Source: Candidatus Zhuqueibacterota bacterium
GTDB taxonomy: Bacteria; Zhuqueibacterota; Zhuqueibacteria; Thermofontimicrobiales; Thermofontimicrobiaceae
Assembly: GCA_049322915.1 (NCBI GenBank)
Contig: JBMOPW010000004.1
Coordinates: 1-64,000, forward strand
DNA: 64,000 nt
Reading direction: 5' to 3'
Shown: positions 31,618 to 55,192 of the stretch, piece by piece
Numbering within the stretch: the first letter of the stretch is position 1
Layout of the letters: each line of letters starts with the position of its first letter
Notes under the pieces: generated by a model
What the model saw: the letters and a program-made list of their open reading frames with translations, nothing else
What the model was told of the DNA's origin: nothing
The model's database searches: none
Program-made: the position numbers and the translations under genes

Positions 31618-32232
31618 ATGATCGAATTGTTTGTAAAAGGCGGCGGAATGATGTGGCTAATTTTGGGTTGTTTAATTCTAGGGCTGGCAATTAGCTTCGA
31701 GAGGCTGTATAGTTTAGTGCGCGCTTCGGTGAACACAAAAAAGTTCATGGAAAAAGTTCAAACTGCGTTGAAAGAAGGTGGCGTTGAAGCAGCAAAAGAA
31801 GTCTGCGAGAATACACGGGGCCCGGTGGCGTCCATTTATCATGCCGGCCTAGCTCGATTTCATTACGGCATCGATCATGTGGAAAAAGCGATCATGAACG
31901 CCGGCTCAATTGAAATGGCCTTCCTGGAACGCGGGTTAGTCTGGTTGGCGACAGTCGTGTCCATTGCGCCGATGTTGGGATTCCTGGGCACAGTCTGGGG
32001 CATGATCATCGCATTCGATGATATTGCCAAAGCCAATGACATTTCCCCGATGATCGTCGCCAATGGCATCTCGATTGCCTTGATAACCACGCTGTTTGGG
32101 CTGATTGTCGCTATCATCATTCAGTTTTTTCACAACCTGTTTGTCTCGATGATCGATAGATTGATCATCGAAATGGAAGAAAGCTCTGTTGACCTGGTGG
32201 ATAATTTAATTGAAATTGAAAAGTCAAAGTAA
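31618..32232 (+). CDS. exbB: MotA/TolQ/ExbB proton channel
   Basis: APMLGFLGTVWGMI, ALITTLFGL. Confidence 0.9.
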   Translation: MIELFVKGGGMMWLILGCLILGLAISFERLYSLVRASVNTKKFMEKVQTALKEGGVEAAKEVCENTRGPVASIYHAGLARFHYGIDHVEKAIMNAGSIEMAFLERGLVWLATVVSIAPMLGFLGTVWGMIIAFDDIAKANDISPMIVANGISIALITTLFGLIVAIIIQFFHNLFVSMIDRLIIEMEESSVDLVDNLIEIEKSK

Positions 32233-32258
32233 ACAACACAGAGCACGGGGAGAAAGTT

Positions 32259-32660
32259 ATGTTCGCTGATAGGAAAAAATCACGACCGTCCGAAATCCCA
32301 ACAGCCTCGTTGGCAGACATTGCGTTTCTCATCCTGATATTTTTTCTGGTGACGACGACCATCGATGTGGACAAAGGGATCAGCCTGGCCCTGCCGCCTC
32401 GGGGAGAGCATAAGGAAGTGCCCAGGAAAAATATATCGAGGCTTTTGATGGATGAGTCCGGGCGCGTGATGATCGATGACGAACTGGTCGAAATTCCGAT
32501 GATCAAAAGTGACATTCAGACAAAGCTGCAGAAAAATCCGAATCTCATCATCTCGGTGAAGACAGCCCAGGATACGGAGTATCGCTATTTCGTACAGGTG
32601 TTGGATCAGTTGAAACAGGCCAAAGCGACGCGGATTTCCATCGCTGAGCCGGAGCAGTGA
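32259..32660 (+). CDS. exbD: ExbD/TolR family protein
   Basis: ASLADIAFLILIFFLVTT with conserved Asp. Confidence 0.9.
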   Translation: MFADRKKSRPSEIPTASLADIAFLILIFFLVTTTIDVDKGISLALPPRGEHKEVPRKNISRLLMDESGRVMIDDELVEIPMIKSDIQTKLQKNPNLIISVKTAQDTEYRYFVQVLDQLKQAKATRISIAEPEQ

Positions 32661-32715
32661 TTCGCATGGATTCTCGGAAGACACGAAATATTACAGCAAA
32701 GGGGAGAATGAAGCG

Positions 32716-33138
32716 TTGAGGTTCTACAAGAAAACAAGAGTTGAAGGGAGCATTCCTACTGCGTCGCTGCCGGACATTGTATTTATGCTTCTCATCTTTT
32801 TTATGGTGACCACGCAGTTCAAGGAATTTCGGGGAATTCCAGTTCGGTTGCCTTCGGCGCAGCAGATCGAGAAGTTACCTGGCAAACGAAATGTGGCGTA
32901 CATTTGGGCTGACGACCGCGGTCGCGTTTCAATTGATGATAAATTTGTCGATACCAGTGTGATTGCAAAAATCATGACTGATAAATGCAATGACCCATTG
33001 CATCCGTTGCGGGTTGTCTCCATGAAAATCGATCAAAATGTGAAAATGGGACTGGTGACCAAAATCCATGAGGAGTTGAGAAACGCAGGCGGCGGCGCGC
33101 TAAATCTCAATTATTCAACGAAAACGCTGGGTAAGTGA
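32716..33138 (+). CDS. exbD: Second ExbD/TolR family protein
   Basis: TTG start; ASLPDIVFMLLIFFMVTT. Confidence 0.88.
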   Translation: MRFYKKTRVEGSIPTASLPDIVFMLLIFFMVTTQFKEFRGIPVRLPSAQQIEKLPGKRNVAYIWADDRGRVSIDDKFVDTSVIAKIMTDKCNDPLHPLRVVSMKIDQNVKMGLVTKIHEELRNAGGGALNLNYSTKTLGK

Positions 33139-33223
33139 GTGCGCCCGGGCTGGATTTCTAAAACGGATAATCGAGTTGTTGGTCTTTTCACAAGTTGCTT
33201 TTCGCCAATCGGAAGGAGAAAAA

Positions 33224-33409
33224 ATGACGCACAAAACGCGATATACCATTGGATTGGTGATTGGGATTCTCGGCATTGTGTTCCTGCTTCTCAATGCTGC
33301 TGACTACGTGATGAGATGGAACCAGATAAGCTCTGGAATTTCAGGGATCGGAATTGCATTAACTGTCATCGGCGCAGGTCTCATGGTGCGCACAAAGGGT
33401 AACAGATAG
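33224..33409 (+). CDS. Small two-TM hypothetical protein
   Basis: AAGGAG RBS, ATG 33224, two hydrophobic helices. Confidence 0.6.
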   Translation: MTHKTRYTIGLVIGILGIVFLLLNAADYVMRWNQISSGISGIGIALTVIGAGLMVRTKGNR

Positions 33410-33747
33410 ATACAGTCGTTCGGCAATTGGTGAATCATCGGGTAAGCTTCTGACTCGCGATGAGTTGAGTGCTTCACGACAGATACCATTGCGGTGGATG
33501 CGGGCCATGTGTCGTTTCTGGTCGTGGATGGGCCGCTTGGATTAAGCATTCAGATCGTCGTTGGTTAGCGGCGAGGTTCGGTCAATTCATGCCGCAGCAG
33601 GCCGACTGAATTCAGCGTGCTCTTCCGGCAGGTTTCATTGCATCAATAACTATCCGGCGATGAATGCAATAAAAACAGGCCGTGAAATACTGGTCTATCT
33701 GAGCGGTTCAGTAACTTTGGAATAATTTTTCTTGAATAAAAAAATTG

Positions 33748-33788
33748 AAAGCGGTATATTGGCAGTGGCCGGTATACCGCTTTTTATT
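33748..33788 (+). terminator. Intrinsic terminator-like hairpin overlapping the -10 of a TTGAAT-17-TATATT promoter
   Basis: AAAGCGGTATA..TATACCGCTTT followed by a T tract; promoter elements at 33732-33760. Confidence 0.6.
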
Positions 33789-33805
33789 GGATGTCGCGAG
33801 GGTGA

Positions 33806-34327
33806 ATGAAGTCAACAACTGTAAAAAATTTTGTGAATGTCGCCGTGTTCGCTTTGGCGCTGAGTTGCTTCAATCCCTTTGCTCCAAAACTTGAGGACGC
33901 CGGCGAGACCGATTTGATCATCACCGAACAGAGAAGTCCGGATGAGGTGCTGCAAAATTTTAAATACTCTTATGTATTCAAAGACTCGGTTTTATACAGC
34001 AATATTCTGGACAGTTCCTTTGTTTTCATCTATTTCGACCCGACCATCGAATCGTCCGGCCGGTTTGTGAGCTGGGGCCGGGATGTTGATCTGAAAACGA
34101 CCGGTCGTCTGTTCCGAAATTTTGATGTCATTGACTTGATCTGGAATAGCACCATTTACCAGTTCGATGAAGAAGATCGGTCGGAAGTATCGAAAAGCTT
34201 CAATCTTTCACTGATTAAAAATGACGAGACGCTGAATATTACCGGGAACGCAATATTCATTTTCAGGAAAAGCGCCTATGATAACAAGTGGCGAATTGTC
34301 CAGTGGAAGGATGAATCGGATTTATAA
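33806..34327 (+). CDS. Hypothetical lipoprotein (possibly NTF2-like)
   Basis: Lipobox ALSC-FNPFAP; C-terminal WRIVQWKDES. Confidence 0.7.
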   Translation: MKSTTVKNFVNVAVFALALSCFNPFAPKLEDAGETDLIITEQRSPDEVLQNFKYSYVFKDSVLYSNILDSSFVFIYFDPTIESSGRFVSWGRDVDLKTTGRLFRNFDVIDLIWNSTIYQFDEEDRSEVSKSFNLSLIKNDETLNITGNAIFIFRKSAYDNKWRIVQWKDESDL

Positions 34328-34350: not shown

Positions 34351-34390
34351 AAAAAAAAAGCAAAGAGCCAAATGACTCTTTGCTTTTTTT
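34351..34390. terminator. Bidirectional intrinsic terminator
   Basis: A9-GCAAAGAG-ccaaatga-CTCTTTGC-T7 between convergent operons. Confidence 0.85.
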
Positions 34391-34494: not shown

Positions 34495-35865
34495 TCAGCT
34501 TAGCTTTGTGAATACGAATGGGAAGACCATCGTCACATTGCCGGATGAAATTGGCTCGAACTTAAGTCGCTGAACGAGACTGAGAATATCCCGTTCCAGT
34601 TGAGGATGGTCAATGGTCGATTCAAGAATTTTTGCGCTGGTCACAAATCCGTTCGCTGCAATGGTGAACTCGACGGAAATTTTACCGCGTAAATTGGGAT
34701 TTCGCTTGAGATACTTTTCGTAGAAATATGTAATTTGGCCCTGCCGCTGGAGAATGACCTCCATCACCGATTGATCAGTCCGTTGTCCCAACGCTTCAGC
34801 GCTGCCTGTCTTTTTGCTCGGCTTAACCAGGTCCACTTTCGCCTGTTTTGTGAGCGTCACCTGGGGCACGTCCTCATCCATGTCCGCAATGAAATCGTCG
34901 ATACCGCCGGAGCTGCCATCTCCACCGAGTCCGATAAGCTGATCCAGCGGATCGCCTGCATCTTTTGTGTTGCCCTTACCGACTTTCAGATTAGTCCCGC
35001 CACCCACAATGCTCTGTAAATCTGCAACCAGCCCGCGGTCGACAAGAGCGTCAACAATGGAACTGGCATTGTTCGAAGCGCCGGTGCCGCCGATGAGGCC
35101 TAACAAGCCCGATGAAGCAGCCCGATTGCCACCACTGTTTCCGCTGTTTCGCCGGCTTCGATTGCCTGAAGACGACTTGCTGTCTGAACTTTTTTGGCCA
35201 TCTTTATTCTCATCGGTGGTCTCAGTATTCGAAGATAGTGATTTCGTATCAAATTGTAAAGGTTCCGTGGGAGTGACATTGATGTATCGCGCCAGGCGTT
35301 CCGGGATTTTATCTAAATCGAGCTTTTGTTCGATGTTCACCTTATAATCTTTTAATGAATAGATGATAAGAGAATTCAGCGTTAGCAACACCAAAAAGAT
35401 CGACTTGAATACCAAATCCGATGTAAGATTTCGGACCATCGCCCGATGCCATGAAAACTCCGGCAGACTTGAAAGCTCAGCAGTGGTTTGCACGGCTACT
35501 TGTTTGAAATAGAAGTCGATTTTGACATCGTCAAAGGCAATGTAACCTTCCTTTCCCGGGGATAAGTTCAGCAATCGCGTGTTCCCCTTGCGAGGCAGGA
35601 TATCGTGCTTCAGCAAATCGTGGATCTGCAGCGTGGAATCCTGCATCGAAATTTTGCCATCAATGAACGGCTGAACATTCAGAACATAGGACCCGTTCAT
35701 CTGTTCGATCAGGGTATACCGCCGGGGATAATGCTGGCCGTACAGGGTGAGGTCATTGTCTCCTCGCTGGCCAATGGTGAATTTTCCGCCGGGCGGAATA
35801 ACCACCTGGCGTCCCTGACCAGCTTGCTCAATATGTAAAATAAGTTGTTTGTATGTTTTTGTCAT
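34495..35865 (-). CDS. GltG/PglI/AgmX-like protein (FHA-like, TM, linker, TonB_C-like)
   Basis: N-terminal FTIGQRGDNDL FHA-like domain, one TM helix, low-complexity Gly/Ser linker, C-terminal YEKYLKRNPNLRGKISVEFTIAANG..FPFVF. Confidence 0.8.
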   Translation of the reverse strand: MTKTYKQLILHIEQAGQGRQVVIPPGGKFTIGQRGDNDLTLYGQHYPRRYTLIEQMNGSYVLNVQPFIDGKISMQDSTLQIHDLLKHDILPRKGNTRLLNLSPGKEGYIAFDDVKIDFYFKQVAVQTTAELSSLPEFSWHRAMVRNLTSDLVFKSIFLVLLTLNSLIIYSLKDYKVNIEQKLDLDKIPERLARYINVTPTEPLQFDTKSLSSNTETTDENKDGQKSSDSKSSSGNRSRRNSGNSGGNRAASSGLLGLIGGTGASNNASSIVDALVDRGLVADLQSIVGGGTNLKVGKGNTKDAGDPLDQLIGLGGDGSSGGIDDFIADMDEDVPQVTLTKQAKVDLVKPSKKTGSAEALGQRTDQSVMEVILQRQGQITYFYEKYLKRNPNLRGKISVEFTIAANGFVTSAKILESTIDHPQLERDILSLVQRLKFEPISSGNVTMVFPFVFTKLS

Positions 35866-35907
35866 AGAAGAATTTAATGTTTAGAAGTACCAATTCTATC
35901 GCGATTT

Positions 35908-36417
35908 TCATTCGGGTTTAATAGTTGCCAGAAGCATGTCGTTGTACCCGACTTTCCCACAGGTGTACATGATCTTTTTAATGACAAGATAGGGAAGTTC
36001 ACGGTCGCCCTGTATGGAAATTTTACCGGTGAATCCCATTTCTGTATTTATTTCGCCGACGCGTTCGCTGAGCTTTTTAATCTGCTGAAGTTCGGCCAGT
36101 AATTCGGGGATAATCAGGTCTGTTCCCTTTATAACTTTATCGACAGTGGTTACTTTTCTCCCATCGAACATAAGAGACTCCTCGGTGATAGCAATGATGG
36201 ATGTCGTTATTGGAAGTTTTTGCGCTGTTGACTCAGGCAAGTTTAAATCCGGAGCAACAGACATGATCTGCCCTTCCACCGAAAAGTTTTTTAAAAGAAA
36301 CACTAACAGAATCGTGAACATGTCGATCATGGAAGTCAGCTTCAAAGCAACTTCCCGGCGTTTCTTTTTCCTTGTAATGGGTTTGAATGATGTATTCAAT
36401 GATGTTAGATTTGCCAT
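35908..36417 (-). CDS. ExbD family, AglS-like
   Basis: LTSMIDMFTILLVFLLKNFS; IQGDRELPYLVIKKIMYTC. Confidence 0.85.
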   Translation of the reverse strand: MANLTSLNTSFKPITRKKKRREVALKLTSMIDMFTILLVFLLKNFSVEGQIMSVAPDLNLPESTAQKLPITTSIIAITEESLMFDGRKVTTVDKVIKGTDLIIPELLAELQQIKKLSERVGEINTEMGFTGKISIQGDRELPYLVIKKIMYTCGKVGYNDMLLATIKPE

Positions 36418-36451
36418 AATTTACTCTTGACATAGATGTGATTGAATTAAA

Positions 36452-36922
36452 CTAACCGGAAAGTGAAACGTTTAAGAATCCAGTTTCCCGGCATTGATCC
36501 ATAACCTTGATTACAACGTCATACTTAACCTTTGCATCTGGCGCGACAATAATGTCTTCAGCAAATGGGAATTGGCTTTTCAAATTCTTTAATTGTTCAG
36601 CCAATTTGCTGTAAATATACTCTGTTCCATTTTTGGCAATCGGATCGAACTTGATGTTCGTATCTTTGATCGCCTTGAGCTGAAAACCATCTTCTTTTAT
36701 CGCGAGTACAACCAGAATCAAGTTTTGCTTCGGCGTTTGGGTTATATCACCTCCCCCTTTGCTCAATGAAGGCAGGGAAAGTTCCACAACAGCAATCTGG
36801 ACAAAGGCTGCTGTCAGCAACAAAAACGGGATCAGAAGCAAAAAGATGTTCATGACAGCAATGATATTGACGTCGTCATCGCCTGCGGATCGGTCTCTTC
36901 CTAATGATTGCTTCAGATTCAT
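36452..36922 (-). CDS. ExbD family, AglQ/AglV-like (Asn at the conserved Asp)
   Basis: VNIIAVMNIFLLLIPFLLLTAAF; PDAKVKYDVVIKVMDQCR. Confidence 0.82.
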   Translation of the reverse strand: MNLKQSLGRDRSAGDDDVNIIAVMNIFLLLIPFLLLTAAFVQIAVVELSLPSLSKGGGDITQTPKQNLILVVLAIKEDGFQLKAIKDTNIKFDPIAKNGTEYIYSKLAEQLKNLKSQFPFAEDIIVAPDAKVKYDVVIKVMDQCRETGFLNVSLSG

Positions 36923-36923
36923 G

Positions 36924-37550
36924 TCAATAACCTTTAACCATAATTAGACGTTTATAGATACGCGCGATATTCTGATTGATTTCATCGATGAGTTCATTGG
37001 TTTTTTCCTGAAAGATGGAATATCCGATCAGGCACGGAATGGCTGCGATCAGCCCGAATGCGGTGGTATTCATAGCCTGGGAAATGCCGTTGGAAAGAAG
37101 AGTTGCTTTCATGGCGGCATCAGCTTTGGCGACCGCTTCAAAGGAGGCGATCAGACCCGTGATTGTTCCCAGCAGGCCTAACAACGTGGCCACATTGGCA
37201 ATGGTGGACAGGTATTGCGTCCGCTTTTCGAGTTTGGGAATTTCAACCATGGCAGCAAGTTCAAATGCATTTTGTACATCGGCAGCAGATTTGCTCGGTT
37301 CTTCGAGTCCGGCCCGGGCAATATTAGGCAGAGCGGCTTTTGACACACTGCAAAATTCGACTGCGCTTTTTATATTATCCCGCTGGATCAAATCGAGCAC
37401 GCGATTCATGAATGCCGCAGTATCAATTCGGTTCTTTATCAAAATGAACATTGACCGTTCAATGATGATTGCAAAACCGGCGATCATGACCAAAAGAATG
37501 ACGTACATGAACGGTCCCCCGAGTCTGAAGAAAGTGACAATAGAATCCAA
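36924..37550 (-). CDS. MotA/TolQ/ExbB family, AglR-like
   Basis: AAGGAGG RBS, TTG start; ANVATLLGLLGTITGLI and ISQAMNTTAFGL. Confidence 0.88.
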   Translation of the reverse strand: MDSIVTFFRLGGPFMYVILLVMIAGFAIIIERSMFILIKNRIDTAAFMNRVLDLIQRDNIKSAVEFCSVSKAALPNIARAGLEEPSKSAADVQNAFELAAMVEIPKLEKRTQYLSTIANVATLLGLLGTITGLIASFEAVAKADAAMKATLLSNGISQAMNTTAFGLIAAIPCLIGYSIFQEKTNELIDEINQNIARIYKRLIMVKGY

Positions 37551-37708
37551 AGTGACAACCTCCTTGAATAGAATGAGATGGTGTTGATTATAAGCGAATA
37601 GTATGAATTAAAACTAGAAATTAGCTTTTTGATTGTAATGTCGATGTAAATAGTGGCAGAGGATATTCAGAAAAAATCCAGCCAGGATTACTTACCGCCC
37701 CGGAATGC

Positions 37709-38113
37709 CTACCAAAGAATGTGATCCCTATCTTTTTCCTGTTTAATCCTATCGCGACGCAGCGTGCTTTTTTCAACAGGTCTGAAAATGTGGGAGAAAA
37801 AATGCCGATTGATCAGGAGTCCATCGACGCGCGGATCAGTGCCCGGAATGATGAATACGGTTTGTGGTTTGGCGATTGAGCCATACACCTCAATACCCTT
37901 CAAAAACACTTTTACCTGGTCATTGGAAATGACAGCCTGATCCGGCTCGGTCGTCTTTTTATCCTGCATGGATTTTTCCTGCGCAGACAAGGGGGCTGCC
38001 GCAGGCTTTTCCGGTTCTTCAGCCAGGACATGAAGCGTCTGACTGATGAGTAACATCGAAAAAACAACGGCGCTGATTAATTTTTTATTGGCCTTGATGT
38101 GAGTGCTAATCAT
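37709..38113 (-). CDS. GltF/CglF-like small exported protein
   Basis: Signal peptide; IEVYGSIAKPQTVFII resembles the GltF motif; ATG overlaps the upstream TPR gene end. Confidence 0.6.
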   Translation of the reverse strand: MISTHIKANKKLISAVVFSMLLISQTLHVLAEEPEKPAAAPLSAQEKSMQDKKTTEPDQAVISNDQVKVFLKGIEVYGSIAKPQTVFIIPGTDPRVDGLLINRHFFSHIFRPVEKSTLRRDRIKQEKDRDHILW

Positions 38114-41072
38114 GATCTGTTTCCCTTTGGCTTGCTGGCACAATCTTCGTGTTATTTGAATTGCCGGAACTGTTCAGGCCTGTGCCCAGCCCCAGTTCGA
38201 TAATTAATTTTTCCATTCGCTGCTTGCTATTTTCTACCCATTCGTTTTGAATGTTGTTCTTTTCAGCGCTGGCAACGTTGGCTTTGTAATATTCAAGCGC
38301 TTTTCTTTTCAATGGAATTACCTGCTGTTCATTCAATTTGAGCATGTATTCCTTTTTTTCCTGAGGATTCAGTTCGTCCGGTGTGGGCGAATTCAATACT
38401 GCCTCTGCCAGATTCTCAACGGTTATCCCTGATTTATAGAGAGCCGCAGTCGTCCAGTCCGCGACTTTGAATTTGCCGGCGTTGCCATATTCATTCAAAA
38501 CCACCTTGAGCAATTGGGTCTTTTTATTGAACGACACATCCAGCGGTGGAACAATTTGTACGGCCTTATATTTTTCAAAATTAATCTCAGCGATCATGTA
38601 CTGCGCCTTAGCCGGGATATATTCATCCACTTGTTTTCGGGCTGTTCTGAACTCTTTAAATTTAGTAATGACTTCACCAAATTCCTTCAACGCGTTGGTC
38701 GTACTCCCCTGGTTATGGGAAATCTCAGCAATATTGTAGAGGCTTTCGATATATTCATCCGGGTCGTCCAGCGGATATTCATTGACATATCGCTGGTACG
38801 TTTCTTTCGCTTTGTTCATCAGTTTCATCTGCTCGTAGCACTTGGCCGCATAGAGTAACGCGCTCGGAGCAAACTTGGACCTGGGATGCAGTTGAACCAT
38901 TTTGATATAGTTGTCAGAAGCGCGAACGAAGTTTTGCATCTTTTCATAAAGCAAGCCGGATTTGACATAGAGCTCATCGACAAATGAAATATTCGGCTGC
39001 TCATCAATCATCCGTTCGTACGATTTCACTGCTTTATCCAGATCGCCGGCTTGCTCAAATTGACCGGCAGCTTGTGTGAGCGCTGCTTTGGCAATTTCAG
39101 GATCCGATGTGTTAAAGGCAATGGTCAAAAATTTCACTGCCGCTTTTGTGGATTCCCCGGTGTCGCGCATCTGCTCGGCAAGTTTGAAATTTGCCGAAGC
39201 GACCATCGTCCTGGCCTTTTTGACATACTGCGTGGAGTCAGGGAAAGCGACGGCGATTTTATTGAACCACTTTTCCGATTCCTGATAATCCTTCAATTTG
39301 AAATAGGTCTGGGCGACCATGTTCATGGCCTGACCATAATAGGGGCTATCTTTGAATTTATCGTCGGCGACTTTCTCGTACGTCCTGGCAGCGAGACGCC
39401 ACTGCTGAAGCTCATACAACGTTTCGGCATATTTCATCAGCACTTCAATGAGGTTTTTGCTGTCGGGCAGATTTTTCACAAAGTCGTTGCAGGCTTTCAG
39501 TAAATTTGCCTGAGTCTCACAACTCACCTTGACCGGCGTGAGCGCGCCGCCACTGGCCAGGAAATCTTCGATATAGAACGTCAGCGAATCCTTTTTCGAA
39601 ACGGTCTTGAGCAATTGATAATAGGATAGAATGCGATTATATGCAGCAGCGTCCTTGTATTCTGTGCTATCGTAGAGCGTCATGACATTATCATACTCGA
39701 CCGCGGCTTTATCATATTCTTCGATGGAATAATAACATTCGGCCAGGTAGTAGTTCACCTTGGCGGCATTTTTTCCATGCTTGAATTTGTTCAGAAAATC
39801 TTCATATTTTTGAATGGCGATTTGATACTCGCGCTTCCTGTTTTTCTCCTGAGCCTGTGTCTGATAATAGGTCCCCAAAGAGAAAAGCATTTCCTCGGAG
39901 AGTTCAATGGCGTCGTTTCGCACTTTGCCTTCAGGATAATTGTTGATCCACTGGCTGTTAGGCCCGTATTTTTCAACGAACACGTCCTTCGCCTGAATCG
40001 CCTTTTCTTCCTCCATGTCCTTTTCGTAGCATTGAATGATCTCTTTTTGAATGAGCGGCGCCTGTGGATAAAGCGGGAAAAGCGCTAACAGGCTCTCGTA
40101 TGTTTGAATCGCCTCGGTGAAGAAATTTCGCTTCTTGTAGATTTCACTCATTCTGAGAAATACTTCGACGGAATAGCTCTGCGTGTCTTTCGCTGAGAAA
40201 AGCTTTTTTGCAGTCTCCGGGCCGCCGTATTCAGTCAGCGAATGGGCGATATATTCGATGGCCTCGTTCCGCACGTCTGCTTTGGTTTTCCCCAGAAGCT
40301 CGGTGTTCATGCTCTCGAGAAGTGAAATATCGCTGATTAAATAGATGTACGTGCTGATGGCATTGGAATAGTCATTGATATTGAAATATGCCCAACCCAT
40401 TTTATATAATGCCATATTGAAATAGGGATCGTTCCAGTGCTCCAAAAGGTAACTATAATGCTCGATGGCCTTGTGAAAATCGCGCTGGTTAAAAAAATGT
40501 TCGCCGAGTCGAAAATGGCCTTCTGAAATTTTAGCGCTCTGCGGCGTTTCAAACAACAGCCGCTGGAAATACTCTTTGGCTTTCTCCTGGTTCCCCTCGT
40601 CCAGGTGGCAGATGGCCAGCCGATACAACACTTTATCTTTAAATTGGATGTCCGGGTATTTTTCCAGTAACTGATAGCACAATTCAATCGTCTGCTTGTA
40701 GCTGACCCGCGGCAAGAAGGGTTCAGTCAGAATTTCGCCTTTTTCAAATTTGGTGATTTCCGTGTCGTATGTTTTCATGAATTGTTTGAATTCAAATTGG
40801 GACTTGCTGGCATGGGACTCAGCCAGCTCGAACAGCATGAATGGAATGAACGGTTCATCCGGATATTGTTCGATGATTTTGATATGATGGTCAATCGTCT
40901 TCGACAAGCCCTCAATATCGATGGAAGCGGTTGTATCCGCTAATTCATATTTCTGATTGGGTCGATAATTTTTCGACTTGCCGGCGCTGTTCTGCGCCTG
41001 ACTATTTTGAAAAACAACCCCTATCATTAAAAATGTAAATATGCTAATAGACTGAATTCGTGTTACTTTCAT
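38106..41072 (-). CDS. Large exported TPR protein, GltD/AgmU-like
   Basis: Signal peptide, many TPRs, ALYKMGWAYFN, C-terminal WTTAALY..PTPDELN..Y..L..KA..NEW. Confidence 0.75.
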   Translation of the reverse strand: MKVTRIQSISIFTFLMIGVVFQNSQAQNSAGKSKNYRPNQKYELADTTASIDIEGLSKTIDHHIKIIEQYPDEPFIPFMLFELAESHASKSQFEFKQFMKTYDTEITKFEKGEILTEPFLPRVSYKQTIELCYQLLEKYPDIQFKDKVLYRLAICHLDEGNQEKAKEYFQRLLFETPQSAKISEGHFRLGEHFFNQRDFHKAIEHYSYLLEHWNDPYFNMALYKMGWAYFNINDYSNAISTYIYLISDISLLESMNTELLGKTKADVRNEAIEYIAHSLTEYGGPETAKKLFSAKDTQSYSVEVFLRMSEIYKKRNFFTEAIQTYESLLALFPLYPQAPLIQKEIIQCYEKDMEEEKAIQAKDVFVEKYGPNSQWINNYPEGKVRNDAIELSEEMLFSLGTYYQTQAQEKNRKREYQIAIQKYEDFLNKFKHGKNAAKVNYYLAECYYSIEEYDKAAVEYDNVMTLYDSTEYKDAAAYNRILSYYQLLKTVSKKDSLTFYIEDFLASGGALTPVKVSCETQANLLKACNDFVKNLPDSKNLIEVLMKYAETLYELQQWRLAARTYEKVADDKFKDSPYYGQAMNMVAQTYFKLKDYQESEKWFNKIAVAFPDSTQYVKKARTMVASANFKLAEQMRDTGESTKAAVKFLTIAFNTSDPEIAKAALTQAAGQFEQAGDLDKAVKSYERMIDEQPNISFVDELYVKSGLLYEKMQNFVRASDNYIKMVQLHPRSKFAPSALLYAAKCYEQMKLMNKAKETYQRYVNEYPLDDPDEYIESLYNIAEISHNQGSTTNALKEFGEVITKFKEFRTARKQVDEYIPAKAQYMIAEINFEKYKAVQIVPPLDVSFNKKTQLLKVVLNEYGNAGKFKVADWTTAALYKSGITVENLAEAVLNSPTPDELNPQEKKEYMLKLNEQQVIPLKRKALEYYKANVASAEKNNIQNEWVENSKQRMEKLIIELGLGTGLNSSGNSNNTKIVPASQRETDHD

Positions 41073-41096
41073 ATCCCCGTTGTCCAGTTGAATGAA

Positions 41097-42548
41097 TTAT
41101 TTTCCCTGAGCTTTTAATTCCATTTGCTTGAGGAACATTGCCCGTGACGTTCCGTACTCAGCGTATCCACGCCAGTTTTTCCGACGCTCTCTGCGCTCGG
41201 CTAATTTTTTGAGTGAATTAATATTATCCTGCATAAGAAGCAGATTATCTTTTTCACCTAACAGATTCTTTATCAGTTGCTCTCTGAAATCTCTCAGTTC
41301 TTTTTTCTCTTCGATCAAATAATGAGGCACATTCTCGCCGTACCCATTCATTGCGATGGCGTCTAACAGTTTGGTCTCCTCGATCAGGACTTTCACTTTG
41401 AGTTTTTCGACTCGATCTTCTTCGATTTCCAGACCGCTGTTTACCTTCTTGATGATATTGGGCACTTGAAAATCGTCCGGGTAATTTTCGACAATCGTTT
41501 GATACGATGTTATGGCTTCATCATATTGTCCCAGAGCAATGTTCGCCTGGCCCAAAAGAAAGTAGGCTTCTTCAGCATTTTCACTATCCGGGTACAGCTC
41601 GATCAATTTTTCCAGATATTTGATAACGTTCTCGTTGTCCTCTACTTTGAGATAGCACCAGCCTAAACCCAACAGAGCGTCCTGGTAATGTTCATGCCTG
41701 TCGGAAATCCCTAAGAATAATTTTGTGGCTGGCTTGAATGCGTTCAATTCATAATACATGAATCCCAATGTCAACCGGGCATTATCAATAATATTCCGTC
41801 TTTCCCCGCTGATGTTTGGCAGAACGATGATTTTGCGCAAATAGTCAATCGCAACAGAGACGTTTGATTTCTTCAAATATGCCAGAGCTGTGTTATACAG
41901 CGCCGCATCATAGTAGCTACTATGGCTATCAATTTTCTTGAGCAAGCTGATTGCCATATCATAATTTTTCAGATTGAAGTGACTCTGGCCGGCAAAATAG
42001 CTGGCCGCGTTAAGTAATTCTTTATCTTCGGGTGTTCTTTTTACCAGTGCAAAATAAACGCGCAGCGCCTGTTTATAGTCACTCTGATGAAAATAGGCTT
42101 TTTCCAGTCCAAGTAATGCCGCCGGAACCATGGGGCTCTTGGGAAATTTCTTGAGGAGATAGGCAAACATACGAGTGGATGCCACACCCAATTCCTCTTC
42201 AAAAAGACACTGACCCAGGTAATAAACCACTTCATCCAGTTTTTCATACGACGAATGGTAATCCATCAGGATTATCAGCTCGCGGGCGCAATCCCAGTAC
42301 GCGCCCTCTTTATAAAGCTCAATGCTGCTGCGAAGAATCTGATTTGCGGCATGCTCAATTTCCTTATCAATCTTCTTTTCGCTGTGTGATGGGTTTGGAT
42401 CTTGTGTGTCTGAAGCAAAATTCGTTCCTGAACTATGCGCCAGGACAGCTATATTAAATACGAATATTATGTTTAATGCATACACACTAACTCTTAAATA
42501 TTTTAATGTTTTGGGCATCTTCATGAGGGGCAAAAACCTGGTTGTCAT
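41097..42548 (-). CDS. Exported TPR protein with C-terminal coiled coil, GltC-like
   Basis: TPRs, ARLTLGFMYYE, ALLGLGWCY; lies upstream of the GltD-like gene. Confidence 0.65.
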   Translation of the reverse strand: MTTRFLPLMKMPKTLKYLRVSVYALNIIFVFNIAVLAHSSGTNFASDTQDPNPSHSEKKIDKEIEHAANQILRSSIELYKEGAYWDCARELIILMDYHSSYEKLDEVVYYLGQCLFEEELGVASTRMFAYLLKKFPKSPMVPAALLGLEKAYFHQSDYKQALRVYFALVKRTPEDKELLNAASYFAGQSHFNLKNYDMAISLLKKIDSHSSYYDAALYNTALAYLKKSNVSVAIDYLRKIIVLPNISGERRNIIDNARLTLGFMYYELNAFKPATKLFLGISDRHEHYQDALLGLGWCYLKVEDNENVIKYLEKLIELYPDSENAEEAYFLLGQANIALGQYDEAITSYQTIVENYPDDFQVPNIIKKVNSGLEIEEDRVEKLKVKVLIEETKLLDAIAMNGYGENVPHYLIEEKKELRDFREQLIKNLLGEKDNLLLMQDNINSLKKLAERRERRKNWRGYAEYGTSRAMFLKQMELKAQGK

Positions 42549-42550
42549 TG

Positions 42551-43585
42551 TTACTTCTTCTCTTCTTGTTTTTTATCGAGAATATTTTTCATATTCTTGA
42601 GATCTTCATTTGCTTTTTCACGGCGCTTCCGAATTTCCTCCAGCTTCTCCAACTCTTCTTTTTGTTTCTGGCGTTCAAGCTTGGATGTCTTGTCAAAATA
42701 TTTGAAGACAGAAAATCGATGGGTCACCCCAACAGCGACTTTCCACGTGAAATATTCTTTATGAAACACGTCTTGATTTTTCAGAGAATCATAATCTGTG
42801 AAAGCAAAATCAAAGGCAATGTCAATTGTATTTTTCCATGGTCCCAAAAATTTTACACCTGGAGTAATTCGCATGGAATTTTGATTGAATGGCACGAGAT
42901 CGGAATTGTTAGTGAATATTTCCCCGGAGTATTCTGTATAAAATTGGAGTGAGCGAATCGAAAATTTGAAGCCCGAACCAATGAACAACTGGTCAATGTC
43001 CGCTTGAAAATAACGATCATAAATGCTATGATCGATGTAGCCAACATTGAAATTCCACATGAGCGGAAAATTAGGGAATAGTTTGATGAAATCGAGCGAC
43101 AACAGAGCTCGTAACTCCCATGCAGGTTTCGATGAGGAAAAAATTTCGTACGGAACGTTGGGAACTTCGGCCGTCGGAAATTTGTAATAGCCCATTAAAC
43201 CCAGTTTAAAACCGTCTGTAGACAAGGGAGTCAAATATTTTAAACCGAGTTTTGTGTCGCCAATTCGTCCTAAAATATGGTACTGATCATCCTGATAAGG
43301 CACGAAATTGGCGATGAGCTCCAGATAGTGGGCTAATCCCACGGTTGCATGTAAATTGACCGCATAATATTTAGCCAACTGCTCCGGCCCTGTCTGCTCA
43401 AAGAAAGTAGAAATATTAGCTCCTACAAATATATCGGTCGGATTGACCGGCTCGGCTGATAATACTCTCCATAATCCCTTTCCCCCGAACATTGAGACTT
43501 GAGAATATACTTTTTCTGAGAAACTGAAAAATACCAATGCGATGATAAAGATGATGAAAGTATTTCTCTTCAATGCGCTACCCAT
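42551..43585 (-). CDS. Outer-membrane beta-barrel-like protein with C-terminal coiled coil
   Basis: Signal peptide, GGKGLWRVLSA, GDTKLGLKY, amphipathic strands, charged helical tail; first gene of the operon. Confidence 0.6.
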   Translation of the reverse strand: MGSALKRNTFIIFIIALVFFSFSEKVYSQVSMFGGKGLWRVLSAEPVNPTDIFVGANISTFFEQTGPEQLAKYYAVNLHATVGLAHYLELIANFVPYQDDQYHILGRIGDTKLGLKYLTPLSTDGFKLGLMGYYKFPTAEVPNVPYEIFSSSKPAWELRALLSLDFIKLFPNFPLMWNFNVGYIDHSIYDRYFQADIDQLFIGSGFKFSIRSLQFYTEYSGEIFTNNSDLVPFNQNSMRITPGVKFLGPWKNTIDIAFDFAFTDYDSLKNQDVFHKEYFTWKVAVGVTHRFSVFKYFDKTSKLERQKQKEELEKLEEIRKRREKANEDLKNMKNILDKKQEEKK

Positions 43586-44313: not shown

Positions 44314-44889
44314 ATGGAGAAGAGCGAAAAACTGTTAATTCTGAAAGCACAGCGCGGTAGCCAGAGCGCGTTCGAATCGCTGGTAGCCAATTATGATGCT
44401 CGAGTACTGGGCTTAATCTATTCCATGTTGAATAATTGGGAAGATGCACGCGACGTGTACCAGGATGTGTTTTTAAAAGTCTTCAAGTCCATAGGTAATT
44501 TTCGATTTCAGAGTGAGTTTTACACCTGGCTCTACCGAATTGTTGTGAATGAGTGCATCAATTACAGAAGAAAGAGATCACAAAAAATGCACGATTCTAT
44601 CGATGATGTGGTGGAACAGATGGAGAGTGATTTGAAATTCGTGCATGATGAAGTAATTTCCAATCCGGAGCGGAACATGCTCGAAAAAGAATTACAACGC
44701 GAAATCAGTCAGGGCATTGAACATTTGTCGCCGAAACAAAAAGCCGTGTTTACATTGCGGCATTACCACGGTTATAAATTGTCAGAGATCGCTGAGATTA
44801 TGAACTGCTCTGAAGGGACGATAAAAAATTACCTGTTCCGGGCCCTTCAAAAGATGAAGGAACAGTTGCGTGACTATTATCAAAATTGA
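44314..44889 (+). CDS. ECF RNA polymerase sigma factor
   Basis: DARDVYQDVFLK, FYTWLYRIVVN, LSPKQKAVFTLR, EIAEIMNCSEGTIK. Confidence 0.95.
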   Translation: MEKSEKLLILKAQRGSQSAFESLVANYDARVLGLIYSMLNNWEDARDVYQDVFLKVFKSIGNFRFQSEFYTWLYRIVVNECINYRRKRSQKMHDSIDDVVEQMESDLKFVHDEVISNPERNMLEKELQREISQGIEHLSPKQKAVFTLRHYHGYKLSEIAEIMNCSEGTIKNYLFRALQKMKEQLRDYYQN

Positions 44890-44899
44890 ATGGTGAATC

Positions 44900-45847
44900 A
44901 TGAAGAGCTGCAAACATTTCAGGAATATGATATGGCTCAGGATATATGGGGAGCTTTCCGAGCAGGAGAATGCTGAACTCGCTGAGCACATTGCGCAGTG
45001 CACCTCATGCCAGTTGGATTATGAAGAAGCGCTGAGTATGAACAAGGTTTTGGATAAGAAAATCCAGTACGCCCCGGATGAAAATGTGCTGAAAGAATTG
45101 CGGAATGATCTCCATTTACGGCTATTGTCGGTCAGGAAGCCGAACCGACAGATCGCCTGGACTGAACGACTCTGGCGCATTATTTCACTTGATTTTTCGC
45201 CCTTCATTAGAATGGGAACGGCTGTTGCTTTAGTGATCGTTGGAATGTTCATCGGCAGCAAGTATTTTCAGATGAAAGGTGGCAGTCCTGATGCGCTAAA
45301 AAAAGTATCGGATAATTCAATCCCGAAAGTGACCGGCGTTGAATTCATAGATTTTAATCCGGCGACACATCAGATTGAAATCACCTTCAATACGATGCAG
45401 GATGTCACTGTGGAAGGTGATCTGAATACGCCCGAGATTCAGAAAATATTAGCTCAGATGCTGATGGCTGACAATAGGCCAAATTTCAAGCTACGGACAG
45501 TGAGGGCGCTGGAGAGCAGCGCGCGCCTGGAAAATGATGTGCTTCAGGCTCTGGCGACGCTCGTTGAGACAGATGAGAATCCGGGCATTCGCTTGAAAGC
45601 GATGAAAGTGCTGACGGCCGCGCCCGTAACGCCCAAGATGAAAAATCTAATGACAAAAGTAGCCGTCAAAGTGTTGTTAAATGATACCAATTCCGCAATG
45701 CGAATAGAAGCGTTCAATTACCTCGGCAGGATCAATAACGGTTACATGGAATCTGATGTGTGCCATGCAGTAAAAGCAGATTCGTCCGAGTATATCCGAA
45801 CCAAATCATCGCATCTTTTGGATCGAAGAGAAAATCCACAATTTTAA
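44900..45847 (+). CDS. Anti-sigma factor (zf-HC2, TM, HEAT-like repeats)
   Basis: HIAQCTSC (HxxxCxxC), TM helix, DENPGIRLKAM and DTNSAMRIEA repeats. Confidence 0.85.
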   Translation: MKSCKHFRNMIWLRIYGELSEQENAELAEHIAQCTSCQLDYEEALSMNKVLDKKIQYAPDENVLKELRNDLHLRLLSVRKPNRQIAWTERLWRIISLDFSPFIRMGTAVALVIVGMFIGSKYFQMKGGSPDALKKVSDNSIPKVTGVEFIDFNPATHQIEITFNTMQDVTVEGDLNTPEIQKILAQMLMADNRPNFKLRTVRALESSARLENDVLQALATLVETDENPGIRLKAMKVLTAAPVTPKMKNLMTKVAVKVLLNDTNSAMRIEAFNYLGRINNGYMESDVCHAVKADSSEYIRTKSSHLLDRRENPQF

Positions 45848-45887
45848 TAAACCACATGTTACATAAATCGAATTGGAGGAACAAACC

Positions 45888-47150
45888 ATGAGAAACAAAT
45901 TCATTATCGTGCTGTTGCTTGGATTTCTTCTGCCCGTCTTAGTGGTCGCGCAGGAATTGAAGAAGGAAGATAAATACTATGTGGCTGATATCACAAAGGA
46001 ATTCGATGTCTCCGGAGGCGGGAATCTCATCATGGAGAAAATTCGCGGCGATGTCTATGTGACCACCTGGGACAACGCAAAAGTGAAGATCCACGAAATC
46101 CGAAAAATGGATGTGTACACGAAAGAGGAGGCCAACGCGCTGTTAAAAGAAAGCGCCACAATTTACAAACAAGAAGGCAATACCATTAAAATTGGAACAG
46201 GGAATGAATACCGGTCATACATGCAAAGTCGCTTTGAAATCACCCTGCCGAGGGAATTCAATGTCACAATCGGCACAAGTGGAGGTGATATTTCGGTGTC
46301 TGATTTGCGCGGGAAAGTGATCCTGAAAACCTCGGGTGGCGACATTGAGCTGCTGGCAATCGATGGTGAGGTCGAGGCTACTACGTCCGGTGGCGACGTG
46401 ACTGTAAAAAAGAATACACAAATGGTAACGATCAAAACATCCGGCGGTGACATTGAGATTATCGACGTCGAAGGAGCGGTTGAAGCCCATACATCCGGCG
46501 GCGATATTGTCGTCAAGAATAACAAGGCCATTGTCAATGTCGCCACGTCCGGTGGGGATATTGAGCTATTTGATGTCGGTGAAAAAATTTCAGCTCGCAC
46601 GTCCGGTGGAGATATTCTGGTTGATGGGACCAAAGGCAGCCTGAATGTTTCAACTTCTGGCGGTGACGTCACACTAAAAAATATTGGTGATGTGATAGAT
46701 GCTGGCACGTCCGGCGGAGATATTGAAGCGGATAATGTGAAAAACGGTATCAGTGCAAAGACTTCCGGCGGTGATATTAGCCTGGTTAATATTCAGGGAT
46801 ATATTGAAGCACAGACATCCGGCGGCGATGTGGATGCCGAGATGCAGTTGACTGATTTTTCGAAAGATCATCATGTGGAAATTGGCTCTTCCGGAGGTGA
46901 TATCACGCTGTATATTCCTGAAAATCTTCCGGCTACCATCAATGCGGAAATCAAACTCAGCGATTCATCCATGCGCGATTACAATATCTATTCAGACTTC
47001 TCCATAAAAATCGAAAAAAGCGATGATACTGAAAAGGGAAATCGGCGTCGCAATGAAGTGATTCATGGACAGGGTAAAATCAACGGCGGCGGCGATTTAA
47101 TCCAATTGACTACTTCCAATGGAAATATTAACATCAAAAAATTGAGATAA
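45888..47150 (+). CDS. DUF4097-family beta-solenoid exported protein
   Basis: Signal peptide; TSGGD repeats; C-terminal INGGG..LTTSNGNI. Confidence 0.85.
   Translation: MRNKFIIVLLLGFLLPVLVVAQELKKEDKYYVADITKEFDVSGGGNLIMEKIRGDVYVTTWDNAKVKIHEIRKMDVYTKEEANALLKESATIYKQEGNTIKIGTGNEYRSYMQSRFEITLPREFNVTIGTSGGDISVSDLRGKVILKTSGGDIELLAIDGEVEATTSGGDVTVKKNTQMVTIKTSGGDIEIIDVEGAVEAHTSGGDIVVKNNKAIVNVATSGGDIELFDVGEKISARTSGGDILVDGTKGSLNVSTSGGDVTLKNIGDVIDAGTSGGDIEADNVKNGISAKTSGGDISLVNIQGYIEAQTSGGDVDAEMQLTDFSKDHHVEIGSSGGDITLYIPENLPATINAEIKLSDSSMRDYNIYSDFSIKIEKSDDTEKGNRRRNEVIHGQGKINGGGDLIQLTTSNGNINIKKLR
46275..46868 (+). repeat. Intragenic 54-bp (18-aa) tandem repeat, 11 TSGGD units
   Basis: TSGGD codons start at 46275, 46329 ... 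46815. Confidence 0.9.
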
Positions 47151-51427: not shown

Positions 51428-51578
51428 TCTGGTTTCCTGCTACGTTAGGTGTCAATTGAATTGTTATTACACAGCGTAATGTTACATAAAACAGCTCTTA
51501 CATTTTCGCATTTGTCTGATCTGCATCACCTGAAGCATTGCCGCCTTGATTCAATGTCATGACGGACGTAAAGTGGTT

Positions 51579-52772
51579 TCATCGTTGCTTTTTCAAAGGC
51601 GCCAGCAGATCGGACTGACTGTGCTGGTATCCCGGCGTTGGGCTGAGGAGGCTGACGAAATCGAACGTGCTGTTATTGGTGTCGTAGCCCGGCCCACCCG
51701 TCTCCGGATTTTCCCGCTCGGTGGAGTGACCGCTATATTTTTGAATGCCATTTCCTGCCAATCCGGTATCGAGACGCGAGTCCATCTCTTTATTTGCATC
51801 CGGCGACGTCGCATATTCGACGCCATCCAGTACCTCGGCAAAGTTGAGCAAAATATAACCCTCGTCGGTGTAAACAAACTGGGCCACATCAGCGACTCTG
51901 GCCAGGATAACGCCATTGTGGGTGAGCGATGTCATGAAATCCACCGGGCGGTTGGGATTGACGTTGATTAAATTCGGCACATTGGGATTGTCCAGGTCGT
52001 TTCCCAATTGATTATAACATTCCCAGTCAGCGTGGGACAGGTCGATGCTGCCGGGCGCTCCGCCAACGGCCACATGATCCAGGGCATCCTGGGCGACGAC
52101 GATAAATTGTCCCGGTTGAATAGGATTGTCCGTGCCATTGCCGGGGAATTGATAGACGTAAAAAACTTCAGCAAATAGCCCCAGATAATCCAATCGCGTG
52201 GAAGCGCGGCACAGGAGCAATCCATCCAGATATTGTACTGACTCCGAAGCATTGTACAGCTCGACGAATTGATCCGAGTAATATATGCCGCTGGATGCCG
52301 GGCCACTGTAGTAAATTTCGTTCATTACGATGGATGATAAGGTATTTGCTCCCATGTAGATGACATACCGGCTACTGGGATCAGGCGTCCTGCTCAGGTC
52401 CAATTCAATGGAGCCTGTTAATTGTACGGCAATGGCGCGCTGATTCAATTCCAGGTTTGTTTCTAAGGAAATGAATTTATCAGCGGAAATGCGGTAGCGC
52501 GCGGCGCGAACATTGTCAAGTTCGAAAAAACCATTTTCATCGGTTTCCAAATCCAAGGGAGCCTGATATTCCACGCAGGTAGCGCGGACGCGCGCGCCGG
52601 GCACACCGGTCAAATCCGAAAGCGATTTGCCAGCTAATGTGCCGGAGGTGTCAATGACGATGAAGCCAGCGCTGACTGTCCCGTCGATGGCGGTTGGTTT
52701 CTCTGCAGAGCAGTATAAAAAAAGAAGATAGGCTGAAGTGATTGTCCAGATTTTCAATGCGTGAAATTTCAT
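51579..52772 (-). CDS. DUF4876-like lipoprotein (copy B)
   Basis: Lipobox-like FLYC; NEIYYSG, DQFVELYN, DLSHADWE, DTNNSTFDF..PTPG. Confidence 0.75.
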   Translation of the reverse strand: MKFHALKIWTITSAYLLFLYCSAEKPTAIDGTVSAGFIVIDTSGTLAGKSLSDLTGVPGARVRATCVEYQAPLDLETDENGFFELDNVRAARYRISADKFISLETNLELNQRAIAVQLTGSIELDLSRTPDPSSRYVIYMGANTLSSIVMNEIYYSGPASSGIYYSDQFVELYNASESVQYLDGLLLCRASTRLDYLGLFAEVFYVYQFPGNGTDNPIQPGQFIVVAQDALDHVAVGGAPGSIDLSHADWECYNQLGNDLDNPNVPNLINVNPNRPVDFMTSLTHNGVILARVADVAQFVYTDEGYILLNFAEVLDGVEYATSPDANKEMDSRLDTGLAGNGIQKYSGHSTERENPETGGPGYDTNNSTFDFVSLLSPTPGYQHSQSDLLAPLKKQR

Positions 52773-55187: not shown

Positions 55188-55192
55188 TTAGG

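Follow-up and report, generated by a model that had tools for sequence, protein, structure and literature searches.

A probable Agl-Glt core complex with its own predicted outer-membrane barrel in the uncultured phylum Zhuqueibacterota

Introduction

Eight co-oriented genes at positions 34495-43585 on the minus strand of a stretch of DNA from a Candidatus Zhuqueibacterota bacterium raise the question whether the proton-driven core of the Agl-Glt machinery of Myxococcus xanthus also exists as a self-contained system in this uncultured phylum, and which process it may serve there. The stretch of 64,000 nucleotides (GenBank assembly GCA_049322915.1, contig JBMOPW010000004.1, positions 1 to 64,000) is referred to as the window throughout. 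An initial annotation, made from the sequence letters, had listed the genes in the order outer-membrane barrel, two tetratricopeptide repeat (TPR) proteins, small exported protein, ExbB-like protein, two ExbD-like proteins and a protein with an FHA domain, a transmembrane helix and a TonB-like tail. It had read them as a Glt-like machine in a genome that seemed to belong to the Fibrobacteres-Chlorobi-Bacteroidetes (FCB) lineage, and this placement was correct, as the genome belongs to Zhuqueibacterota, also termed KSB1, within the FCB superphylum (PMC11683472).

In the main text of Luciano et al. (2011; PMC3169522) a 'core complex' is described that consists of aglR, aglQ, aglS, gltC, gltD, gltE, gltG and one additional gene, and that is reported from Gamma-, Beta- and Deltaproteobacteria and from Fibrobacter succinogenes, an FCB member. 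Two Myxococcus machines descend from this complex, whose function has been an open question since 2011. We find that the operon in the window is probably a self-contained member of this class, a proton-driven and envelope-spanning machine as predicted from homology and structure models. By sequence comparison seven of its eight genes are homologues of core complex parts, probably so in the case of P2, and P1, the barrel gene, is the exception. The interpretation given in the initial annotation is thus supported, but the novelty that it implied does not stand, since the core complex was already known from F. succinogenes (PMC3169522). What seems to be new is the variant that carries a barrel and lacks GltE.

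Organization of the operon

All eight open reading frames (ORFs) were found on the minus strand in the order of the initial annotation, with neighbouring genes overlapping or separated by at most 158 bp. They are listed here in the direction of reading.

P1, 42551..43585, minus strand: 344 aa; exported, predicted 12-stranded outer-membrane beta-barrel followed by a long C-terminal helix (residues 299-343, rich in Lys and Glu)
P2, 41097..42548, minus strand: 483 aa; exported TPR protein, GltC-like, shorter than GltC
P3, 38106..41072, minus strand: 988 aa; exported TPR scaffold, GltD-like
P4, 37709..38143, minus strand: 144 or 134 aa (start at TTG 38143 or ATG 38113); small exported protein, probable member of the GltF/CglF family
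P5, 36924..37550, minus strand: 208 aa; AglR-type channel subunit of the MotA/TolQ/ExbB kind by homology (pentamer expected)
P6, 36452..36922, minus strand: 156 aa; TolR/ExbD-type subunit, transmembrane Asp replaced by Asn
P7, 35908..36417, minus strand: 169 aa; TolR/ExbD-type subunit, transmembrane Asp retained
P8, 34495..35865, minus strand: 456 aa; GltG-type transducer by homology

For the proteins of the window, Pfam recognises TPR in P2 and P3, MotA_ExbB in P5, ExbD in P6 and P7, and TonB_C in P8; P1 and P4 match no Pfam or NCBIfam family. The two motifs that had been pointed out earlier, IEVYGSIAKPQ in the small protein and AMNTTAFGL in the ExbB-like protein, are both present.

The motor proteins

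P5 matches MotA_ExbB with 100.7 bits, and reaches 83 bits with the NCBIfam TolQ model (cut-off 221) and 52 bits with the ExbB model (cut-off 206). Its nearest relatives outside KSB1, with 42-50% identity, belong to Glt-core loci from Gammaproteobacteria, Myxococcota and Bdellovibrionota, among other groups. We calculated a maximum likelihood tree of 59 ExbB/TolQ-like proteins, in which the bootstrap was not fully settled and M. xanthus AglR is not among the rows. The KSB1 P5 group (ultrafast bootstrap 100/SH-aLRT 99) is nested in a clade of 37 rows, made up of 36 core-type motors and one long-branch paralogue (97/89), whereas four TolQ proteins that pass the NCBIfam cut-off form a clade of their own (99/96). 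The other paralogues of the window's genome are placed elsewhere in the tree. The motor consequently does not group with ordinary TolQ or ExbB, in line with the Glt-like machinery that had been proposed. Note that the stand-alone Myxococcota motors within the core-type clade are candidate AglR only. A hidden Markov model (HMM) built from P5 yields the same division in four reference genomes, with 197-223 bits for core-type motors as opposed to at most 112 bits for the other 19 ExbB-like proteins. Homology thus identifies P5 as an AglR-type channel in the Agl/core clade, apart from certified TolQ.

P6 and P7 match Pfam ExbD with 70 and 52.5 bits, respectively, and the TolR score in the operon is 39 bits as compared to a cut-off of 127. 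By homology they are two different TolR-like subunits, as are AglQ and AglS beside their channel gene. P6 carries the sequence VMN[ILMV]F, with an Asn at the site of the proton-binding Asp of TolR and ExbD, in 22 of 22 KSB1 sequences, and P7 has the transmembrane Asp in the same number (22/22). In loci L042-L121, 66 of the 80 P6-type sequences have Asn at this site, 2 have Ser and 12 have Asp, and the P7 type has Asp in 76 of 76. Asp at the P6-type site is confined to the stand-alone motors of Myxococcota and Bdellovibrionota, a single Zixibacteria locus and an unrelated ExbD. The Asn could serve as a marker that sets core-type operons apart from those stand-alone motors, which may belong to the gliding type. 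The replacement of the proton-carrying Asp by Asn in one ExbD-like subunit seems to be a new observation, and the Asn/Asp pair hints at a stator with one site.

The GltG-type transducer

P8 consists of a cytoplasmic FHA fold (residues 1-125), a transmembrane helix at about residues 150-175, a periplasmic linker rich in Ser, Gly and Asn with conserved motifs, and an AgmX/PglI-type domain that resembles the C-terminal domain of TonB (364-452). The latter, which bears directly on the assignment of this gene in the initial annotation, matches NF033768 with 86.2 bits at a cut-off of 40. The NCBIfam GltG model aligns over positions 220-646 of its 650 (E 8.8e-27) with 93.9 bits and a cut-off of 650, and P8 reaches 90-93 bits with the GltG proteins of Myxococcota Glt-like clusters. 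The tail also gives a GltJ match of 21.7 bits, and Pfam TonB_C is passed narrowly (25.2 bits, cut-off 24.6). The Pfam FHA model is not reached by the window protein, and weak matches to it occur in 5 of 22 P8 orthologues. The label FHA nevertheless proved justified, as evidenced by the predicted structure of residues 1-135 (predicted local distance difference test score, pLDDT, 91), whose matches in the PDB are mostly of the FHA or YscD type, including the first 28 listed. Homology and models together show P8 to be a GltG-type protein with an FHA fold, a transmembrane helix, a long linker and a TonB-like tail.

The TPR proteins

For the Glt parts of the periplasm we used Glt-like clusters of Myxococcota as a reference. 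The reference cluster comprises, according to NCBIfam, two OMP_myx_plus barrels, GltC (212 bits), GltE (113), CglF, which is GltF (57), GltG (353) and CglE, which is GltH (94). No NCBIfam model named GltD appeared, and GltD was identified by its position between the recognised GltC and GltE.

P3 contains TPR, YbgF-type and BamD-type repeats. With an HMM of KSB1 P3, the proteins at the GltD position of two Myxococcota Glt-like clusters score 322 and 352 bits over HMM positions 36-943 of 960, and the large TPR proteins of at least 60 non-KSB1 core loci 108-554 bits; homology thus marks P3 as a GltD-type TPR scaffold. Large TPR paralogues occur elsewhere in the genome at C7:217911-220985, C4:65029-68049 and C14:319325-323813 (contig:positions). 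One of them is very close to P3 (830 bits) and isolated, one lies just past the end of the window, and one directly precedes another ExbB-ExbD pair.

The best reading of P2 is that of a short GltC. It matches NCBIfam GltC with 27.5 bits (E 1.2e-6), far under the cut-off of 450. Among five KSB1 P2 orthologues, tested at E ≤ 0.01 for the window protein and at E ≤ 1e-6 for the other four, three matched GltC (the window protein and two of the four others) and none matched GltE. In the Myxococcota Glt-like clusters, the KSB1 P2 HMM gives 50-65 bits as one domain with the GltC-position proteins and 17-20 bits with those at the GltE position. The location of P2 before the GltD-like gene equals that of the GltC-like gene in proteobacterial core loci.

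A whole-genome search for GltE yielded repeat-level matches below the cut-off only, of a kind also found in 12 of 14 control genomes. The earlier statement that the system has its own barrel and no obvious GltE is consistent with this result and with the model of P1. Taken together, the TPR and GltF-like genes do show Glt homology as had been suggested, at 322-352 bits for the GltD type, weakly for the GltC type, and by profile comparison for the GltF type.

P4 and the GltF family

The P4 family is characterised by the motif KvFLkgIEVyGsiaKPQ. NCBIfam CglF does not match P4 at E ≤ 10, and the link between the two is one of remote homology, not of equivalog membership. A small exported ORF with the same motif is found directly before the motor gene in all 16 non-KSB1 core loci inspected. 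As evidenced by profile comparison with hhalign, the KSB1 P4 family is related to these small ORFs (probability 98.4, E 7e-15), and these in turn to GltF-like proteins (94.7, E 5.8e-8). The direct comparison of KSB1 P4 with GltF gave a probability of 64 and E 6.4e-5 over the 23-column motif, and an unrelated control 0.16 and E 0.37. NCBIfam CglF is the top match of 4 of 12 core small ORFs (E 0.001-0.024). In a set of 52,600 ORFs, the core-ORF HMM detects the P4 of the window (E 1.6e-6) as the sole ORF of its own genome at E ≤ 1e-3, along with 28 of 122 GltF-like proteins. The best matches of a GltF HMM outside its own family in the same set are small ORFs of motor-bearing loci, with those of Bdellovibrionota first, followed by KSB1 and core loci. 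Cross-matches in this test were restricted to small ORFs at the syntenic position. P4 shares with GltF/CglF (NF033764) the strand motif (..V.G.l.KP....l..R), a downstream R..F..e..q.V segment and the position of its gene between the TPR genes and the motor.

From these profile relationships we conclude that P4, the 'additional gene' of the core complex and GltF form one family. We infer that the additional gene in the main text of PMC3169522 is the small ORF because this is the sole conserved ORF without an assignment in the core loci inspected. The same text lists GltF as confined to Myxococcales and Bdellovibrionales; contrary to this listing, GltF is probably part of the ancestral core. This seems to be new, as no such statement was found in a limited search of the literature on GltF, GltG, AglR and the core complex.

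In the Myxococcus model, GltF adds a beta-strand to the sheet of the GltG tail and has its C-terminal helix placed in GltC (PMC11761067). By analogy, the conserved P4 motif is likely the counterpart of the GltF strand that pairs with the GltG tail. A complex prediction for P8 320-456 and P4 60-134, both supplied as alignments, gave a score of 0.01 at a mark of 0.32, which counts neither for nor against binding.

The outer-membrane barrel

The AlphaFold2 model of P1 (pLDDT 86, predicted template modelling score 0.74) has 12 strands followed by a 45-residue helix (299-343). The top Foldseek matches are FapF (E 2e-7, TMt 0.62), OmpG, a COG4313 channel, Tsx and NanC, all of them outer-membrane barrels of 12-14 strands. 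P1 is thus predicted to be a 12-stranded outer-membrane barrel, and the model bears out the label that it had been given from the sequence. Its gene precedes P2 in 21 of 21 KSB1 loci, and no P1-type ORF is present in 73 non-KSB1 loci. A collection scan with a single pattern returned 66 relatives of P1, all from KSB1-type metagenome-assembled genomes (MAGs). Look-alikes in the Atlas are barrels of the Phenol_MetA_deg type and, in many cases, barrels fused to OmpA domains, and are a lead only. Two P1 paralogues (147 and 110 bits) are found in the genome at C44:89069-92012 and C16:222151-225469, where they adjoin genes for large OmpA-domain proteins.

Conservation in the phylum and distribution beyond it

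The synteny sample consisted of 20 regions from 12 families and two public loci, 22 in all, two of which are the same contig, so that 21 are distinct. Since the loci were selected by the presence of P8, the count concerns the other seven genes. The order of the eight genes is identical in all 21 distinct loci, and the synteny across KSB1 genomes by which the annotation had proposed to check its reading is thereby found. A relative of P8 was detected in 163 of 167 genomes of the phylum and in every one of the 105 that are of high quality. Matches of near full length at E ≤ 1e-50 occur in about 110 of the 167; the rest are weaker and mostly restricted to the tail, and four genomes gave no match. 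Two unpublished genomes, G158 and G162, are counted in these tallies. The closest public loci belong to MAGs labelled candidate division KSB1, Candidatus Zhuqueibacter or Coneutiohabitans, and to evidently mislabelled bins. A protein search with the P8 alignment returned 98 proteins, where named mostly from KSB1 and one from Nitrospirota, and did not reach Myxococcus.

The corresponding search of public genomes with the P5 alignment returned 592 relatives. The best 80 after the KSB1 loci originate in Gammaproteobacteria (Marinobacter, Microbulbifer, Cellvibrionaceae, Alteromonas, Paraglaciecola), Myxococcota, Bdellovibrionota, Nitrospirae, Zixibacteria, Gemmatimonadetes and Thermodesulfobacteriota. 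With HMMs of the KSB1 proteins, the gene order in most of these loci was a TPR gene of 620-870 aa, a large TPR gene, a third TPR gene, a small ORF, the motor trio and a P8-like gene. This core order was seen in Gammaproteobacteria, Myxococcota, Nitrospirae, Zixibacteria and Thermodesulfobacteriota. NCBIfam recognised the first TPR protein as GltC in 3 of 6 loci tested and the third as GltE in 6 of 6. Judged by sequence and gene order, these loci are the core complex of Luciano et al., and their taxa overlap largely with those named in the main text of PMC3169522.

A second, diverged copy of the system is located in the window's genome on contig C32 at 159691-171906 (locus L223). It encodes two TPR proteins (967 and 1546 aa), a small protein that is exported and bears a GltF-type motif, ExbB, two ExbD and a GltG-like protein of 395 aa without FHA, and a bactofilin gene directly precedes the cluster. 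Its motor falls into the core-type clade, with a partner that the careful tree leaves unresolved and a weak grouping with Bdellovibrionota-type motors in a quick tree only.

A model of the machine and its alternatives

By analogy with the AlphaFold model of PMC11761067 and with TolQ5R2-TolA, a P5 pentamer would surround a P6/P7 heterodimer with the sole protonatable Asp in P7. P8 would dock on this stator via its FHA domain and transmembrane helix, its linker would cross the peptidoglycan and run along P3, and its C-terminal domain would pair with the conserved beta-strand motif of P4. P2 would join the periplasmic assembly to the barrel P1, whose C-terminal helix would reach into the periplasm, and proton flow would be converted into mechanical work at the outer membrane.

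Several points weigh against the assignment to the core complex class. We know of no characterised example of a core complex outside Myxococcus in any lineage. No protein of the operon reaches the NCBIfam equivalog cut-off for a Glt protein, with 93.9 of 650 bits for GltG and 27.5 of 450 for GltC. The scores that identify P2 as GltC are weak, and TPR proteins cross-match easily. GltE is one of the seven core genes, and the operon has no gene at its position and no match to it in P2 or P3 at E ≤ 0.01. The Glt reference is the cluster of a Myxococcota MAG recognised via NCBIfam, not the M. xanthus sequences, and it also stays below most equivalog cut-offs (GltC 212/450, GltE 113/225, CglF 57/90, GltG 353/650), with only CglE passing at 94/70. 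Finally, all physical contacts among P1-P8 given above are inferred by analogy. Note that none of the 101 genomes examined from the phylum to which a Myxococcota MAG belongs gave an equivalog-level GltG (E ≤ 1e-150), with 10 candidates scored per genome.

It appears improbable to us that the operon is an equivalent of Tol-Pal. In such a system the motor would power the tethering of the outer membrane and its invagination during division, YbgF/CpoB-like TPR proteins would provide the coordination with the cell wall, and the barrel would take the place of Pal as the outer-membrane anchor. A Tol-like role is suggested because no protein in the window's genome (96% complete) passes the TolQ, TolB or Pal cut-offs and the other annotated ExbB loci are ordinary TonB sets. 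In addition the cluster is very widely kept across the phylum, the tol_pal_ybgF model scores above its cut-off of 90.1 with both P2 (96.6 bits) and P3 (137.9 bits), and the best named match of P5 is TolQ. This match is far below its cut-off, however, the motor belongs to a different clade, and the YbgF-model matches are repeat-level and are given by Myxococcota GltD-like proteins as well. Furthermore, TolB exceeds its cut-off in 46 of the 167 KSB1 genomes, among them 20 of 21 in family f7 and 19 of 19 in f15, and these families keep the full eight-gene cluster too (e.g. loci L029, L030, L037 and L038). Core-bearing Gammaproteobacteria and Myxococcota likewise have certified TolQ. As TolB coexists with the cluster in KSB1 and TolQ with the core in Gammaproteobacteria and Myxococcota, we take the operon for a system other than Tol-Pal.

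A surface-transport or gliding machine like Agl-Glt or Nfs, which moves an adhesin or surface polymer along the cell, receives a similarly low probability. The homology to a Myxococcus machine with that role, the presence of an outer-membrane component of its own and the proposal of Wartel et al. that the core is a possible basal transport machinery (PMC3858216) speak for it; Luciano et al., in their main text, consider the core alone unlikely to drive motility (PMC3169522). The cluster contains no adhesin gene, and the word 'gliding' occurs nowhere in two KSB1 genome papers according to a search listing of their text. The first ExbD-like subunit has Asn here and in core-type loci, whereas both subunits have Asp in the stand-alone Myxococcota and Bdellovibrionota motors. 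Neither a GltA/B-type barrel (TIGR04565) nor GltH/CglE (NF033755) was found over the cut-off in the genome; the latter was also missed in the control genomes, and its model does match the Myxococcota protein (94 bits). The search for gliding parts covered the GltA/B, GltH and GltE types, none of which was found, but not GltK, CglB, GltI, GltJ, AglZ or a link to MglA. On the basis of this negative result, our best guess for the process served is one of the outer membrane or the cell surface in general, and not gliding. The remaining option, an ordinary ExbB-ExbD-TonB energiser for TonB-dependent uptake placed beside unrelated TPR and barrel genes, was rejected as hardly credible. It draws on the narrow TonB_C match (25.2 against 24.6 bits) and on public annotations of orthologues as 'TonB family protein' or 'energy transducer TonB'. 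All eight genes stay together in each of the 21 loci, however, and the core genes do so across phyla, the tail of P8 is of the AgmX/PglI type, and the motor lies in the Agl/core clade with its ExbB score at a quarter of the cut-off (52/206). The genome also has separate ordinary ExbB-ExbD-TonB sets, and P1 has 12 strands and is not a 22-stranded receptor with a plug, of which the cluster contains none.

We return to a core complex variant that may serve a general outer-membrane or surface process. A more far-reaching proposal would place the operon beside Mot, Ton and Tol as a fourth class of envelope machine driven by protons, in a complete and minimal form of eight proteins with its own outer-membrane anchor, which most of the phylum would retain for a housekeeping role at the outer membrane or surface. 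The GltG tail would be clamped to the TPR scaffold by GltF, acting as an ancestral adaptor similar to a TonB box, and the Asn/Asp heterodimer would form a single-site stator with a stroke unlike that of symmetric 5:2 motors. We regard this proposal as speculative and rather unlikely to hold. The locus itself represents a compact variant with its own predicted outer-membrane barrel that most of an uncultured FCB phylum has retained. Coexistence with TolB sets a limit on its function, in that it is not simply Tol-Pal in another form. The variant, the placement of GltF, the Asn marker and the TolB limit provide handles for experiments in tractable core-bearing gammaproteobacteria.

Neighbouring genes

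A promoter scan of the locus gave 25 sites as compared to 23.5 ± 5 in shuffled sequences, i.e. no excess, and a search for RNA sequencing runs that contain the operon listed none. Between the end of P8 and a convergent lipoprotein gene lies one further feature.

Terminator-like hairpin, 34353..34390, strand not assigned: 15-bp stem with A/T runs on both sides, from a consensus scan and not functional evidence

On the plus strand at 31618-34327, a second ExbB-ExbD-ExbD set (204, 133 and 140 aa) and a lipoprotein-like ORF of 173 aa converge on the end of the operon. No TonB-like gene was noticed beside this set, and its adjacency is kept in close relatives only (5 of 22 fetched loci, two of them the same contig). 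Upstream and divergent, at 44314-47150 on the plus strand, are genes for an extracytoplasmic function (ECF) sigma factor and a zf-HC2 anti-sigma factor and an ORF of 425 aa. This trio, or at least the sigma pair, is found near the cluster in 6 of 22 fetched loci (two again the same contig), which belong to several families and have the pair on either side of the cluster; the neighbourhood may reflect a regulatory link to the operon. At 49934-57997 on the minus strand, a gene for a DUF6850 outer-membrane barrel is followed by three ORFs of similar size (about 400 aa) and one of 934 aa on the same strand. Beyond the window, at C4:95016-101573 (locus L221), a gene of the SprA type, the translocon of type IX secretion, adjoins an M28 peptidase gene and an ordinary ExbB-ExbD-TonB set.

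Comparison with known systems

The barrels of FapF, COG4313 and Phenol_MetA_deg resemble P1 in having 12 strands and a periplasmic helical extension. Sequence identity is 9-16%, however, no amyloid or aromatic-uptake genes are found near P1, and the helix of P1 is C-terminal whereas the coiled coil of FapF is N-terminal. With Tol-Pal the operon has in common the expected proton-driven stator of the 5:2 type, a TolA-like transmembrane protein with a long linker and a globular C-terminal domain, YbgF-like TPR repeats and the span across the envelope. It differs in the predicted P6/P7 heterodimer in place of the TolR homodimer, in the lack of TolB and Pal in the cluster and in the clade of its motor.

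Homologues of the motor, GltG, GltD and GltF and a probable one of GltC link the operon to the Agl-Glt and Nfs machines of M. xanthus (PMC3169522, PMC3858216, PMC11761067). P8 corresponds to all of M. xanthus GltG, i.e. central FHA domain, transmembrane helix, linker and TonB-like C-terminal domain, except for the first FHA domain (PMC11761067). This domain and GltE are lacking in the KSB1 operon, the outer-membrane part is an unrelated barrel, and in one stator subunit Asn takes the place of the Asp found in stand-alone motors of the Myxococcota type. The closest system is the core complex. The KSB1 operon deviates from it in the barrel gene at its head, in the lack of a GltE-type gene, in the length of the GltC-like protein (483 aa in P2, 620-870 aa in the core complex) and in its host phylum, which is not listed in the main text of PMC3169522. 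In both, an AglR-type channel, two TolR-like subunits, GltG-type and GltD-type proteins, a GltC-like protein and a small extra exported protein are combined in one operon, and the gene order in KSB1 is that of the proteobacterial loci.

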